Positions 15,825 through 22,390 of a stretch of DNA of 64,000 bases are shown here, one piece after another. How positions within the stretch are numbered: the first letter of the stretch is position 1; every line of letters starts with the position of its first letter. Source of the DNA: an uncultured Planctomycetia bacterium (GTDB lineage Bacteria; Omnitrophota; Gorgyraeia; 2-02-FULL-51-18). The translations under genes and the position numbers were made by a program. The DNA is taken from NCBI GenBank assembly GCA_964431835.1, contig CAYSKO010000002.1, positions 137,632 to 201,631 of the forward strand, given 5' to 3'. The notes under the pieces were generated by a model. That model was not told the DNA's origin. It did no database searches and saw nothing but the letters and a program-made list of their open reading frames with translations.

Positions 15825-17295
15825 TGCGGACAGCCTCCTTTTTGAGGATGAAATTCTTGAGCGTGGAGCGTAGAAGCCCTTCCTTGCGCTCGAACCGAAG
15901 GATGAGCGGCGCGAACGCCGCTGTGAAAAAAACAGCGCGCAGAACAGCGCCGGAACCGGGGGTGGCCCTCGAGAAAAGGATCTCGGCGCCTGCGACGACG
16001 GCGGCGAAATATACGAACGTGCCAAGGATGCGGCCGAGCAGCTTTAAAAATTCCGCACGCGCAAGGATACGCGTGAACGCGTAGCCGAACACCGACAGAA
16101 AAAAAACGAAGTACGCGGCCGAGGTCGCGGCGGCGACGCCTTCGATTCCCCAGCCCGCGCGGAGAGCGCCCCAGATGAGGGCCGCCGCGACGCCCACCAT
16201 GGCGACGTAAACCGGCACGAGCTTCCCCTGCCGGTTCGTCGTAAAAAGAACGCTCGAAGCCATTTCGTTCACGGCGATGAAGTAATACCCGACGAGAAGA
16301 ATTCGCATCGCGCCCAAACCTCCCTCGAACCGCGGCAGGAAAAAATGAATGAGCGGAGGCAGGCAGACGAGCACCGTTCCGATGATCGCAGGCAGGTAAT
16401 GCGCGAGCGCGAGCGTCACCCGGACGAATCGTCCCTTTGCCTCGTCGAGCGAACCCGTACGCCCGTAGCTTTCCTGGATGTGCGGGAAGATGATGATGTG
16501 GGCGAAGCGCCCGAGGGCGCTCACCTGCTGGACTGCCATGAGCGCCACCGTGTAGAGACCGAGCGCGGCGTAGCCGAGCGTCCGGCTGATCAGGATCGCG
16601 TCGAGCGAAAGAAACGTGATGAGGCAGTAACTCAAGATCACCATCGGGAAACCGATGCGCACGAGGCCGGCGACTTCGCGCGGGTCGAAAGCCGGCGCCA
16701 GCCGCACGCCCGAGACCCGCCACGCGAGCGCAGCCGAGCACGCGGTGGCCGCCAGGAAGCCGAAGGCGAGCCCGACCACCCCGCCCTTCCACGCGAGCGC
16801 GAGCGGAAACGCTGCCACGAAGAACATGTTCGCGACGATGAGAAGGCTCAGTTCGGACACCTTCTTGAGCGTCCGGAGGAGCGTGAGAAAATAATTGTAC
16901 GCCTGCGTCGCGATTGCAAGCGGGGCCATCACGAAAAGACCCTTCCGGAGGAGGGGGTCGTCGATGAAGAAGGCGGCGATCCCGGCGATCACGGCAGCGG
17001 AGACGATCGACGCCCCGGCTGTGAAAGTGAACGCGTTGTTCTCGAGCCGCTTCACGCGGGACTCGTCGCCTGCGCCGGTGGCCTGCGGCACCTCGCGCAG
17101 TAGTGCGTCGCGCGTTCCGAGGTCCGAATATTCCGCGTAGCTCCCGAACACCTTCATCACGGCCCAGTATCCGGCGCCGGCGGTCCCCAGGAGCGCCTTC
17201 ATCGCCACGCTCACGACGATACCGATCGCCATCGCCGTGTAATTGGCGACGGTGTACTTGAGCGTATCTTTGACGACGAGATCCTTAAGAGACAC
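15817..17295 (-). CDS. Wzx-like polysaccharide flippase (MOP/MATE-type polysaccharide biosynthesis protein)
   Basis: About 12 predicted TM helices in the Wzx pattern. GTG start chosen at the 1-nt overlap with the upstream TAG stop; the ORF's R-rich extension to 17604 is not credible. Confidence 0.65.
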   Translation of the reverse strand: MSLKDLVVKDTLKYTVANYTAMAIGIVVSVAMKALLGTAGAGYWAVMKVFGSYAEYSDLGTRDALLREVPQATGAGDESRVKRLENNAFTFTAGASIVSAAVIAGIAAFFIDDPLLRKGLFVMAPLAIATQAYNYFLTLLRTLKKVSELSLLIVANMFFVAAFPLALAWKGGVVGLAFGFLAATACSAALAWRVSGVRLAPAFDPREVAGLVRIGFPMVILSYCLITFLSLDAILISRTLGYAALGLYTVALMAVQQVSALGRFAHIIIFPHIQESYGRTGSLDEAKGRFVRVTLALAHYLPAIIGTVLVCLPPLIHFFLPRFEGGLGAMRILLVGYYFIAVNEMASSVLFTTNRQGKLVPVYVAMVGVAAALIWGALRAGWGIEGVAAATSAAYFVFFLSVFGYAFTRILARAEFLKLLGRILGTFVYFAAVVAGAEILFSRATPGSGAVLRAVFFTAAFAPLILRFERKEGLLRSTLKNFILKKEAVRNA

Positions 17296-18542
17296 TAGAT
17301 CGCGCGCCTGTAGAGGTCGCGTTCGAGTTTTTCCCGGACTTTCGCGACGTCGTCCGGCCCCATCGATTGGCGATAAACGGCTTTTCCTTGCGGCTCGGGC
17401 CATCCGTCCTGCTTCTCGAGGAAACGGCGAAGGCCCCCGACCATCACGTCCCGCTGGTGCGCGATCATGCGGGTGCGCACCTGGGCGTACCCCTCGCCGC
17501 GCCGCACGGGCATGTCCGCCTGATAGATGATGGGACCCGAGTCTATCTTTGCGGTGGCCAGATGGCAGGTCGCGCCGACCGGATCGTCGTTCAGGATCGC
17601 CCATTCCACGCAGCTGCAGCCGCGGTAACCCGGGAGGATGCCCGGATGGCAGTTGAGAACCCCTTTCCGCGCTTTCCTTAGGATTCTCTCGGAAAGAACC
17701 GCCGTTCCCCCGAGAATCAGAACGCCGGGGTCAAGCGCGGCCAAAAGCTCCTCGCAGGCGGCCGAACCGTGGTCTTTCACGTAATGGATTCGGGGAGCCG
17801 TGTTCCCCAGCGCGTCTCCCAAGAAAAGCGGCGCGTAGAGACCGCCCGTGCGCTCAGCGACGATCGCGCGATCGCGCTCGGCGTACGCGTCGCCTTCGAA
17901 GACGACGCTGTGCACCCGGATGCCCGCTTCGCGAAACCCTTTCAAGTATTCGAGGCCCATGAGATTGCCGTACCGCGTAAGGACCACGACGCGGAGCGCG
18001 CCGGGGTGTTTGGGATTCGTCTTGGACCACTGGACCACGTCGTGATGGAACCCGTCTTTCAGGAATGCATCCCGAAGAACGCCTTCTTCGACCATGCCCA
18101 GACGCGCCGCGATGCGGGCCATCGCGGCGTTTCGTGCGGTGGCCCCTACGAAGACGCGGTGGAGATCGAGGGAGCCGAAGACATGCTCGAGGAGAAGGCG
18201 GCAGGCTTCCGTGCCGACGCCTTTCCCCCATGCGTTGCGTTCGCCGATGAGCAGGGATATCTCGGCGGAACGGCTCGTGTTCGAGATAGAATTCAGCGAC
18301 GCGTTCCCGACGTGGCGGTTGCCGTCCTTCAGGATGATCGCGTACGCGAGCGTGTCATGGGAAATGGAGACCTCGGCGACGTACGCGCGGAGCTTCTCGG
18401 CGGTGTAGCCCGAACCGTGACGGTTGTCGCGGCAGACCTCAGAATCGTTCATCCAGGAAAGCCAGGCGCCCGACACGTGGCGCGCTAGGAGCGGTTCCAG
18501 CCGGACCTTCGCGCCTTCGAGCGGCCGCAGGTCGAGCGTCAC
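17295..18542 (-). CDS. Bifunctional fusion: N-terminal GNAT acetyltransferase (RimL/PseH-like) + C-terminal formyltransferase domain (Formyl_trans_N)
   Basis: GNAT: NAWGKGVGTEA. Formyltransferase: LNCHPGILPGYRG (N-x-H) and HLATAKIDSGPII (H...D...G-P-I). GTG start overlaps the PseC-like stop (GTGA). Confidence 0.75.
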   Translation of the reverse strand: MTLDLRPLEGAKVRLEPLLARHVSGAWLSWMNDSEVCRDNRHGSGYTAEKLRAYVAEVSISHDTLAYAIILKDGNRHVGNASLNSISNTSRSAEISLLIGERNAWGKGVGTEACRLLLEHVFGSLDLHRVFVGATARNAAMARIAARLGMVEEGVLRDAFLKDGFHHDVVQWSKTNPKHPGALRVVVLTRYGNLMGLEYLKGFREAGIRVHSVVFEGDAYAERDRAIVAERTGGLYAPLFLGDALGNTAPRIHYVKDHGSAACEELLAALDPGVLILGGTAVLSERILRKARKGVLNCHPGILPGYRGCSCVEWAILNDDPVGATCHLATAKIDSGPIIYQADMPVRRGEGYAQVRTRMIAHQRDVMVGGLRRFLEKQDGWPEPQGKAVYRQSMGPDDVAKVREKLERDLYRRAI

Positions 18543-21107: not shown

Positions 21108-22145
21108 TTAAAAGTCCCCAGCCTTCAAGCCGTCTCCAAGCGCGATCGCGCGCTTCGCGCGCTTGCCTTCGGCCCGGGAAAGAAAACGCGGATGCATCCC
21201 CTTCGTCCGCGAGCCCGGGCGCAGGACCGCGACGTTGTCGCCTTCGCGCAGCGTGTCGCCGCGGCGGATCGTGCGGATCGCCTGTACGGCGCGCTGGGCG
21301 TACGCGTGAAGCTCTTTCTCTTCGGGCAGAACTTCCTTCTTGCCGGTCCCGAGCGCGGACGACGCCGCGTGCACCGCGTGCACCAAAATCGAGAGCTCCC
21401 GGCACGTGACCGCAAATGCGTGGTCGGGTCCGGGGAGCGAGCGATCAAGCGTGAAATGTTTCTCTATCAGCGTGGCTCCCAGCGCGACGGCCACGGCGGG
21501 CGCCACGAGTGGATCGAGCGAGTGATCGGATAGCCCCACCGGGACGCGGTATCGCGTGAGGAGAGTCGGGATCGCGCTCAGGTTCAGCGCTTCGAACGGC
21601 GCCGGGTACTTCGCCGTGCACTGCATGAGCGACAGGTTCTTTCCGCCGTGGCGGCGGAATTCGGCGACAGCCCAGTCGATGTCGTCGAGCGTGGAGGCGC
21701 CGGTGGAAAGGATCGTCGGTTTGCGCGAGCGGGCGGCCAGGCGAAGCAGAGCGGGATGCGTGATTTCGTAGGAGGCGATCTTGTGGACGCGCACGTACGG
21801 GTCGACGGCGCGGAAATCGGCTTCGGAAAAAGGCGTCGTCATGAACGCGATGCGGCGCTTGCGGCAGCGTGCGGCGAGTTTCGGCACCATCTCGTAAGGC
21901 ATTTCGAGGTTTTTGAACAGTTCCGTTATGGGCTTCGAGATGCCGCTCTTGGAAAGGTAGCCACTGACGCCGGCGTTCGAAACGTACACGGTGTCAGCAC
22001 GGTAGGTTTGAAATTTGACCGCGTCGGCACCCGCTTCCGCTGCGGCGTCCACCAGCGCGAAGGCCCTCTTCAGATCGCGGACCGCGGATCCAGCCCGCCA
22101 GTTCGAACCGGCCTCAGCGATGACGAACACCGATGGACGCTTCAA
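21108..22145 (-). CDS. N-acetylneuraminate/pseudaminate synthase family (NeuB/PseI) with C-terminal SAF domain
   Basis: VFVIAEAGSNW...AGADAVKFQTY...KIASYEI...STGASTLDDI...; C-terminal SAF/antifreeze-like domain. TTG start overlaps the HTH-gene stop (TTGA). Confidence 0.85.
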   Translation of the reverse strand: MKRPSVFVIAEAGSNWRAGSAVRDLKRAFALVDAAAEAGADAVKFQTYRADTVYVSNAGVSGYLSKSGISKPITELFKNLEMPYEMVPKLAARCRKRRIAFMTTPFSEADFRAVDPYVRVHKIASYEITHPALLRLAARSRKPTILSTGASTLDDIDWAVAEFRRHGGKNLSLMQCTAKYPAPFEALNLSAIPTLLTRYRVPVGLSDHSLDPLVAPAVAVALGATLIEKHFTLDRSLPGPDHAFAVTCRELSILVHAVHAASSALGTGKKEVLPEEKELHAYAQRAVQAIRTIRRGDTLREGDNVAVLRPGSRTKGMHPRFLSRAEGKRAKRAIALGDGLKAGDF

Positions 22146-22390
22146 GGTTCGCTTTTCTCATCGTCGGAGTGGGCCCAGTTGCGGGCCTTATTGTAGGCTT
22201 TGCCGAGCTTGTCTTCGAGCTCGGGCGAGAGGATGCGGAGAAGCTCTTTTCCCATGATCCGGTACTGTTTGCCGACCTTCGCTGTGCGGATCAAGCCGGT
22301 CTTGATCATGCGGGTGACCGTGCTGGGGCTCACCTTAAGGAGCTGACGCACTTCTTCGGGCGTGTAGACCTCATTTTCCTTTATTTCCAT
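22142..22390 (-). CDS. Small helix-turn-helix DNA-binding protein (excisionase/MerR-like HTH); first gene after a strong promoter
   Basis: MEIKENEVYTPEEVRQLLKVSPSTVTRMIKTGLIRTAKVGKQYRI (HTH). GGAGA Shine-Dalgarno 5 nt upstream of ATG. Confidence 0.6.
   Translation of the reverse strand: MEIKENEVYTPEEVRQLLKVSPSTVTRMIKTGLIRTAKVGKQYRIMGKELLRILSPELEDKLGKAYNKARNWAHSDDEKSEP

Follow-up and report, generated by a model that had tools for sequence, protein, structure and literature searches.

The 64,000-nucleotide stretch of contig CAYSKO010000002.1 analysed here (the window) carries on its minus strand a block of genes that probably makes, decorates and exports a pseudaminic-acid-type sugar (5,7-diamino-3,5,7,9-tetradeoxy-nonulosonic acid) without a linked gene for the UDP-sugar hydrolase PseG. 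Pseudaminic acid (Pse) is a surface sugar of pathogens and many environmental microbes, and its six-enzyme pathway is a drug target as well as a basis for predicting nonulosonic acids from genomes. The synthase of the block, a NeuB-family protein referred to below as NeuB*, belongs to a very large environmental clade in which a linked PseG is the exception. It is quite possible, though we would not go so far as to call it probable, that this clade makes Pse-type sugars without PseG, with about half of its members using an enzyme of the NUDT22 fold together with a HAD phosphatase and the sub-type seen in the window using a third solution.

In the route that we propose, PseB would convert UDP-GlcNAc to a 4-keto-6-deoxy L-sugar, PseC would aminate C4, and a GNAT protein of 142 amino acids (aa) would acetylate the C4 amine as PseH does. 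UDP would be removed by an enzyme outside the block to give the free hexose, which NeuB* would condense with phosphoenolpyruvate (PEP), and a cytidylyltransferase of the CTP_transf_3 family would form the CMP-sugar. Tailoring may then add an acetamidino group (by WbuX, HisH and HisF), an N-methyl group (by a TIGR03587 methylase), a formyl or second acetyl group (by a GNAT-formyltransferase fusion) and possibly a third amino group (by an oxidoreductase and a second DegT-family aminotransferase). A TagF/BFO_1060-like GT-B protein, p630, would transfer the sugar; Wzx would flip the lipid-linked product, and a GT-C enzyme would attach it.

Core enzymes and the search for PseG

The PseB and PseC steps are placed by family assignment at equivalog level, both proteins scoring above the cut-offs of their models (Table 1). 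Compared with H. pylori FlaA1 (2GN4; 431 bits), PseB retains the catalytic D, K, Y and K (SSDK...MYGATK); it is of the inverting FlaA1 type with a catalytic Tyr, not the Met variant of SpsM and CapE. The 142-aa GNAT protein matches both the GNAT half of annotated PseG-GNAT fusions (E 5.5e-5) and the GNAT::NeuB* fusions (171 bits), and would do the PseH job of N-acetylating the 4-amino group; neither GNAT of the block gave any NCBIfam match, PseH (TIGR03585) included. The cytidylyltransferase has no match to PseF (TIGR03584) at E 1e-5 or better and gives weak KdsB-type matches. Its best solved structure is 6OEW (140 bits), and it is a putative CMP-nonulosonate synthetase.

NeuB* falls below both of the relevant NCBIfam cut-offs, scoring 274.6 bits with NeuB TIGR03569 (cut-off 399.65) and 254.7 with PseI TIGR03586 (cut-off 340.25). 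It is 32-37% identical to annotated PseI, and among solved structures it scores 228 bits with B. subtilis SpsE, 194 with PseI and 126 with N. meningitidis NeuB. The higher of the two NeuB and PseI scores, and the fact that SpsE is a legionaminic acid synthase (PMC7439481), would suit an alternative in which the product is not of the Pse type and a sialic- or legionaminic-type synthase is fed by a ManNAc-type precursor made by WecB. We regard this as highly improbable, since the synthase gene is translationally packed with equivalog-level PseB and PseC genes, the PseB is of the Tyr-bearing inverting type, and clade members lie beside PseB and PseC in 32 of 43 related loci. In one of these, L018, NeuB* stands beside PseB, PseC, a Pse-associated methylase and a PseG-GNAT fusion, a context that makes a Pse-type product the best reading. 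The legionaminic acid models also stay low in the window: with LegB (TIGR04180; cut-off 475), PseB scores 62 bits and the SDR at 24646-25617 scores 155; the LegC model (TIGR04181; cut-off 420) reaches 213 bits among the window's open reading frames (ORFs); and no window protein matches at LegG or NeuC level. A preliminary description of this DNA had allowed that the NeuB-like protein might classify as a sialic-acid synthase; with its NeuB score so far under the cut-off, it does not.

PseG itself was sought with two models. TIGR03590 found no match in about 60 ORFs scanned across the whole window. A local PseG hidden Markov model (HMM), built from the annotated PseG of Klebsiella, Sphingobium and Pseudosulfitobacter plasmids and run with --max on six frames of the window, gave as its sole match the 142-aa GNAT, by way of the GNAT half of PseG-GNAT fusions. 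With scores of 103-412 bits, the same HMM recovers PseG from assemblies of Vicinamibacterales and Verrucomicrobia as well as from metagenome loci, and because it reaches such distant taxa we consider it sensitive enough. Contigs that run past the window, ~2.3 kb beyond its left end and ~6 kb beyond its right, likewise gave no PseG match; the sequence inspected is thus the 64 kb window plus ~8 kb of flank. These searches bear out the preliminary description, which had reported no PseG-type hydrolase in the locus. Literature searches for PseG-less Pse pathways and for Nudix enzymes in Pse synthesis returned nothing relevant in the literature collection searched.

The window has ~63% GC, and nearly all of its genes are on the minus strand. 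Consecutive genes of the block overlap or abut (gene calls from identical metagenome contigs), one strong promoter-like site precedes them, and terminator-like sites within 3000-22600 do not exceed the number in shuffled sequence (19 observed, 25.6 expected); the block therefore probably forms the section nearest the promoter of one ~25-kb minus-strand operon. The promoter-like site is the sole one with at least 10 of 12 consensus positions within 3000-22600. It sits in a 50-bp AT-rich gap (22391-22441) before the ATG at 22390, and the gene upstream, for a PMT_2-type GT-C membrane glycosyltransferase, ends at 22441. The first gene of the block encodes a small HTH_17 protein, probably the regulator of the cluster, and such a gene also precedes the synthase in L017. 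One strong promoter followed by PseB-, PseC- and NeuB/PseI-like proteins, a GNAT, a cytidylyltransferase and Wzx had been described before, and all of these elements are present; the order had been given as PseB first but is NeuB-GNAT-PseB-PseC behind the regulator gene, and what had been listed as a GNAT amounts to two GNAT domains plus one formyltransferase domain.

The synthase clade and the releasing step

Relatives of NeuB* are 57-68% identical to it, and many of them are GNAT::NeuB fusions of ~520 aa. Related metagenome loci are given L-numbers (L017, L018 and so on); 80 clade loci were collected and scored with local HMMs, and the census covers the 43 that have at least 8 kb of sequence, with a subset of 32 that also have PseB and PseC. 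Among the 43 loci, PseG is present in 2 (in both as a PseG-GNAT fusion), HAD together with a NUDT22-like protein in 19, HAD alone in 1 and neither in 21; among the 32, the corresponding numbers are 2 with PseG, 11 with the HAD/NUDT22-like pair and 19 with neither. PseG and the pair never co-occur. As a small control, canonical-PseI loci have PseG adjacent in 5 of 5 cases. Because PseG is found in just 2 of 43 loci, the lack of a linked PseG is a rule of the clade and not an oddity of this contig; it looks systematic rather than accidental.

The locus L017, whose synthase is 65% identical to that of the window, is syntenic with it (HTH, NeuB*, GNAT, PseB, PseC, Wzx, cytidylyltransferase, WbuX, HisH, HisF, TagF-like transferase, PMT_2), and the PseG HMM finds no PseG there. 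De novo gene clustering in the loci with neither PseG nor the pair brought out no universal extra gene, the commonest being a GFO-type oxidoreductase in 11 of the 21 loci compared. Several sister loci hold two synthases, and at L077:6359 and L078:10777 a CTP_transf_3 cytidylyltransferase appears to be fused to a second NeuB-family synthase, one that is more like PseI.

The NUDT22-like proteins of the 19 sister loci form a family of 234-248 aa, termed u24x, that is encoded directly beside the synthase together with the HAD phosphatase, which is of the beta-phosphoglucomutase/sugar-phosphatase type. The Nudix box of u24x members is degenerate, and the family gives no Pfam match that passes the gathering threshold; a few members bear the name NUDIX or MutT in their source records, and PF00293 is found in two. 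In an AlphaFold model with a predicted local distance difference test score (pLDDT) of 96.5, both domains match human NUDT22 (E 2e-13 to 1e-12, TMq 0.73-0.76), and the next-best fold matches are other Nudix proteins at E 6e-7 or worse. NUDT22 splits UDP-glucose into UMP and glucose-1-phosphate (PMC10101856), and its fold in u24x fits the chemistry of detaching a sugar from UDP. Linkage, mutual exclusion with PseG and fold together suggest that the pair is a two-step bypass of PseG, in which the NUDT22-like enzyme would split the UDP-sugar into UMP and a sugar-1-phosphate and the HAD enzyme would turn the latter into free sugar and phosphate. HMMs for HAD, NUDT22-like and PIG-L proteins found no match in the window (best E for HAD and NUDT22-like 0.68 and 1.6, in six frames). 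With neither PseG nor the pair present there, the releasing enzyme would be either unlinked or unrecognised.

Several points weigh against a Pse pathway that runs without PseG. None of the synthase, the GNAT and the cytidylyltransferase reaches its respective equivalog cut-off (PseI, PseH, PseF), so that the stereochemistry of the product is only inferred. The bypass role is read from linkage, mutual exclusion and fold, and the pair on which it is based is absent from the window. Many of the loci with neither PseG nor the pair are flanked on one side by under 10 kb of sequence. Proteins near-identical to those of the window occur on metagenome contigs of 204 and 242 kb, and the sequence inspected amounts to some 72 kb, so that the genome possibly holds PseG or a Nudix/HAD pair outside it. 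In certain organisms, such as H. pylori, the pse genes are dispersed.

The last of these points speak for a canonical pathway with an ordinary pseG elsewhere in the genome, the block being an incomplete cluster. NeuB* is compatible with PseG as well, PseG-GNAT fusions adjoining it in L018 and L067. We nevertheless consider this explanation rather unlikely. PseG is unlinked in 41 of the 43 clade loci, as against its adjacency in all of the canonical PseI loci; were it in general use, a linked copy should turn up now and then among the 21 loci with neither, and none has one; and of the PseG-GNAT fusion the window has just the GNAT half, in the form of a gene of its own. On balance, the enzyme that releases UDP in the window is probably one other than PseG.

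Candidates within the window have also been proposed. The preliminary description placed three WecB-type 2-epimerases and a NUDIX hydrolase in the locus as possible substitutes for PseG on a variant route to the hexose. These genes exist, but all of them lie outside the span given for the block (17295-22390), in other sub-operons. The WecB paralogs score 272-388 bits with the non-hydrolysing WecB model TIGR00236 (cut-off 210.15) and 60-84 bits with the hydrolysing NeuC/LegG-type model TIGR03568, none coming near its cut-off of 235.9, and thus belong to the non-hydrolysing class. Each is part of a separate module in which a GT2 enzyme is paired with a GT-C glycosyltransferase of PMT_2 type; the module of the second paralog (oxidoreductase, WecB, SDR, ArnC-like GT2, PMT_2) recurs upstream of the block in L017. 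The NUDIX gene is 38 kb from the block in a sub-operon with the order DegT - GT2 - PMT_2 - NUDIX - UDP-sugar dehydrogenase. Its product is unrelated to the NUDT22-like family, and a canonical Nudix box is found in 0 of 85 sister loci, so that it is no conserved companion of the synthase; the HMM search noted above found no HAD phosphatase in the window to work with it.

We therefore think it quite improbable that a WecB paralog acts as a hydrolysing NeuC/LegG-like enzyme, or that the NUDIX hydrolase frees the hexose, or both. Apart from the presence of the genes, such a reading has in its favour that the NudE/YffH/AdpP family acts on nucleoside-diphosphate sugars, that sister clusters have a Nudix-fold enzyme beside the synthase and that an inositol-monophosphatase-family phosphatase is encoded at 45992-46831. 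From the earlier proposal, a variant route to the hexose stands as likely, but not one through WecB; a Nudix substitute survives only by analogy with the NUDT22-like proteins of the sister loci, and not in the form of the window's own NUDIX.

If it is true that a large synthase clade runs without PseG, completeness rules that require PseG (KEGG-style modules) would under-call Pse producers in metagenomes. The NUDT22-like and HAD pair is a concrete candidate for the missing step in the sister loci; if real, a NUDT22-fold bypass would mean that a textbook step has been replaced non-orthologously, and would give the NUDT22 fold a first physiological role among prokaryotes. The window, with neither PseG nor the pair, defines a third type of cluster.

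Table 1. Features of the window and gene sets of the sister loci, with the matches by which they were recognised
Feature	Position	Strand	Match or other evidence
WecB paralog 1	662..1747	-	TIGR00236 388 bits; TIGR03568 59.7
Methyltransferase, two GT2 enzymes, WecB	662..4266	-	with WecB paralog 1 at the distal end of the gene string
PMT/PMT_2 GT-C glycosyltransferase, 604 aa	4276..6090	-	after p630, same as in L017
p630, GT-B protein of TagF/BFO_1060 type, 614 aa	6187..8031	-	family and profile matches
Second DegT-family aminotransferase	8009..9319	-	43-45% identical to trio partner in L013, L015, L023
Protein with C-terminal Amidohydro_2, 502 aa	9322..10830	-	N-terminal ~315 aa match no known family
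Pse-biosynthesis-associated methylase	10827..11453	-	TIGR03587, 168.5 bits (cut-off 112.05)
HisH-like, WbuZ/HisF-like and WbuX genes	11453..14048	-	WbuX 317.7 bits (cut-off 203.2); WbuZ 259.5; HisH 210.3
GFO/IDH/MocA oxidoreductase	14050..15078	-	family match
CTP_transf_3 cytidylyltransferase, 249 aa	15075..15824	-	Pfam CTP_transf_3
Wzx-like MOP-family flippase, 492 aa	15817..17295	-	family match
GNAT (N-terminal) and Formyl_trans_N (C-terminal) fusion, 415 aa	17295..18542	-	family matches
PseC aminotransferase, 393 aa	18539..19720	-	TIGR03588, 463.6 bits (cut-off 423.5)
PseB, inverting UDP-GlcNAc 4,6-dehydratase/5-epimerase	19713..20681	-	TIGR03589, 516.9 bits (cut-off 407.75)
GNAT, 142 aa	20678..21106	-	GNAT family match
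NeuB-family synthase (NeuB*), 340 aa	21108..22130	-	PF03102, 259.7 bits
HTH_17/excisionase-type small DNA-binding protein, 82 aa	22142..22390	-	first gene of block
Sigma-70-like promoter	22409..22438	-	TTGACT, 18-nt spacer, TG-TATTAT; AGGAG ribosome-binding site downstream
WecB paralog 2	25614..26708	-	TIGR00236 272.6 bits; TIGR03568 68.1
WecB paralog 3	32237..33424	-	TIGR00236 315.9 bits; TIGR03568 84.3
NUDIX hydrolase, NudE/YffH/AdpP-like, single-domain, 183 aa	60109..60660	-	canonical Nudix box 60385-60450
NeuB* - HAD - u24x set in L023	7812-8555 and 11550-12197	- and +	
NeuB* - HAD - u24x set in L016	11529-12885		
NeuB* - HAD - u24x set in L024	11551-12955		
NeuB* - HAD - u24x set in L032, L035, L038, L039, L049, L055, L076, L083, L091, L093, L101			

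Transfer, tailoring and the surrounding glycan locus

The GT-B protein p630 is the sole one of uncharacterised function common to the window and L017. Its C-terminal GT-B domain matches the BFO_1060 family (NF046086) at E 2.9e-14, with 53 bits against a cut-off of 200; members of this family are genetically implicated as the Pse/Leg transferases of T. forsythia (PMC5420450). Profile matches include Cps3D (9e-14), TarL, TagF, WecB and KpsC, the best being TagF-like enzymes, and the protein contains a DED motif (333-335), a near-invariant QHG-type His359 and K473-x-H475-P476. In its structural model (pLDDT 94.6), the closest folds are UDP-GlcNAc 2-epimerases, followed by TarL and Cps3D. We assign p630 as a putative CMP-nonulosonate transferase because of the BFO_1060- and TagF-like matches, the QHG His and the HP motif, and because a homolog coexists with the NUDT22-like and HAD proteins in L023/L062.

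Some of the same data could be taken to mean that p630 is a masked UDP-sugar hydrolase that replaces PseG: it is shared with L017, its fold neighbours include the hydrolysing NeuC 5XVS, its L017 homolog is faintly similar to the C-terminal part of PseG (TIGR03590 E 0.0098, PseG7 HMM E 0.0012), and hhalign gives a probability of 89% over 111 columns. This seems very improbable, and we rejected the idea. In sequence, p630 matches transferases most strongly (BFO_1060 family, TagF, TarL, Cps3D), PseG is not among its top 50 fold matches, and the equivalent of WecB E117 is not conserved whereas the TagF-like QHG His is. The homolog that coexists with the NUDT22-like and HAD proteins is a further point against it, as is the coexistence of the BFO_1060 family with a full PseBCHGIF set in T. 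forsythia (PMC5420450, PMC5378307). Moreover, the p630 family is present in only 8 of the 21 loci compared.

To judge from its genes, the predicted tailoring set of the operon is unusually rich, covering acetamidino, N-methyl, N-formyl and possibly third-amine modifications. The HisH, HisF and WbuX genes would form the acetamidino module. The cytidylyltransferase, oxidoreductase and DegT genes make up a trio that recurs beside NeuB* in L013, L015, L023/L062, L075, L079, L087 and L093, and that may place a further amino group on the nonulosonic acid once it has been made. Some loci carry two cytidylyltransferases. The Wzx-like protein is 41% identical to the product of the L017 gene in the same position.

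In the GNAT-formyltransferase fusion, the formyltransferase domain keeps the catalytic Asn-x-His and Asp (LNCHPGILP ... IDSGPII); with these transferase residues intact, the domain was rejected as a hydrolase. Stand-alone homologs of the formyltransferase half lie directly upstream of NeuB* in L055 and L101, where they replace the GNAT, a placement that suggests N-formyl variants of the sugar. A scan of a genome collection with the fusion found only distant formyltransferase-domain matches. In L023 and L024, a PIG-L deacetylase gene is located beside a formyltransferase gene. The Amidohydro_2 protein lies inside the tailoring part of the operon and was likewise rejected as the UDP-sugar hydrolase, being absent from L017 and from all 85 sister loci.

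Around the operon, an Arn-like arrangement of ArnC-like GT2 and PMT_2 GT-C is repeated at 22441-30871, 4276-6090, 43057-45249 and 60657-63619, and formyltransferase, deacetylase, SDR and DegT genes lie close by. The 64 kb encode at least five proteins of GT-C type, pointing to multiple periplasmic glycosylation systems. A NodU-like carbamoyltransferase (35225-37039, minus strand) and a sugar C-methyltransferase (Methyltransf_13/23/14; 55580-56905, minus strand) suggest O-carbamoylated and C-methylated sugars in other glycans of the organism. The halves of the glycan locus are divided by a gene at 39142-43035 (minus strand) for a 1297-aa protein with repeats like those of exoglucanase CbhB and the F510_1955 glycosylhydrolase family. 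Just one gene of the polysaccharide region, at 30941-32278, is clearly on the plus strand; it encodes an SGNH/AlgX-like protein, a putative O-acetyltransferase or esterase, whose homolog adjoins WecB in L017. Past the right end of the window, futalosine-pathway menaquinone genes begin (L021:1-5961; MqnA/D-like, two radical-SAM CofH_C-type, UbiA, UbiD and a flavoprotein); thus, the glycan locus ends at this flank. The same genes give a hint on the physiology of the organism.

Comparison with known systems

The canonical pathway of H. pylori and C. jejuni consists of PseB, PseC, PseH, PseG, PseI and PseF. The window shares PseB and PseC with it at equivalog level and, more broadly, the conversion of UDP-GlcNAc to a 4-amino-6-deoxy-L-sugar, N-acylation, PEP condensation and CMP activation; the acetamidino module and the Pse-associated methylase are also familiar from canonical Pse systems. 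In contrast to that pathway, the window is without PseG, draws its synthase, acetyltransferase and cytidylyltransferase from other sub-families, and adds the GNAT-formyltransferase fusion and the oxidoreductase and aminotransferase pair.

The sps pathway to legionaminic acid in B. subtilis (SpsM, C, D, G, E, F; PMC7439481) has UDP-linked intermediates and a GNAT acetyltransferase in common with the window, and supplies in SpsE the best solved-structure match to its synthase. It needs the PseG-like SpsG, however, and its SpsM is a PglF-like dehydratase, whereas the PseB of the window is inverting and of the FlaA1 type. The other known source of free hexose for a NeuB-family synthase is a hydrolysing UDP(GDP)-HexNAc 2-epimerase, NeuC or LegG. 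These enzymes share the GT-B fold with the WecB paralogs and p630, but no window protein reaches the NeuC cut-off.

With the T. forsythia transferases Tanf_01245 and TFUB4_00887 (PMC5420450), p630 shares the family match and the DED and HP motifs, which are found in bacterial sialyltransferases as well, and it sits like them at the end of a nonulosonic acid operon. It differs in falling below the family cut-off and in having an extra N-terminal region of ~300 aa. The tailoring trio resembles EpaA/EpaB of A. baumannii prophages (PMC12053666), in which a cytidylyltransferase-like protein and an oxidoreductase remodel C8 of Pse after its synthesis. EpaB is a short-chain dehydrogenase, however, not a GFO/IDH/MocA protein, and EpaA/EpaB work without an aminotransferase; their outcome is epimerisation, whereas the trio of the window would carry out an amination.

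Human NUDT22 (PDB 5LOR, 5LF9), a UDP-glucose/UDP-galactose hydrolase, is the closest parallel to the proposed bypass in the sister loci, with u24x sharing its two-domain fold (TMq ~0.75) at an identity of only ~16%. The substrate of u24x would be a UDP-diacetamido-trideoxy-hexose and, unlike the human enzyme, the sister loci would need a second enzyme, the HAD phosphatase, to arrive at the free sugar.

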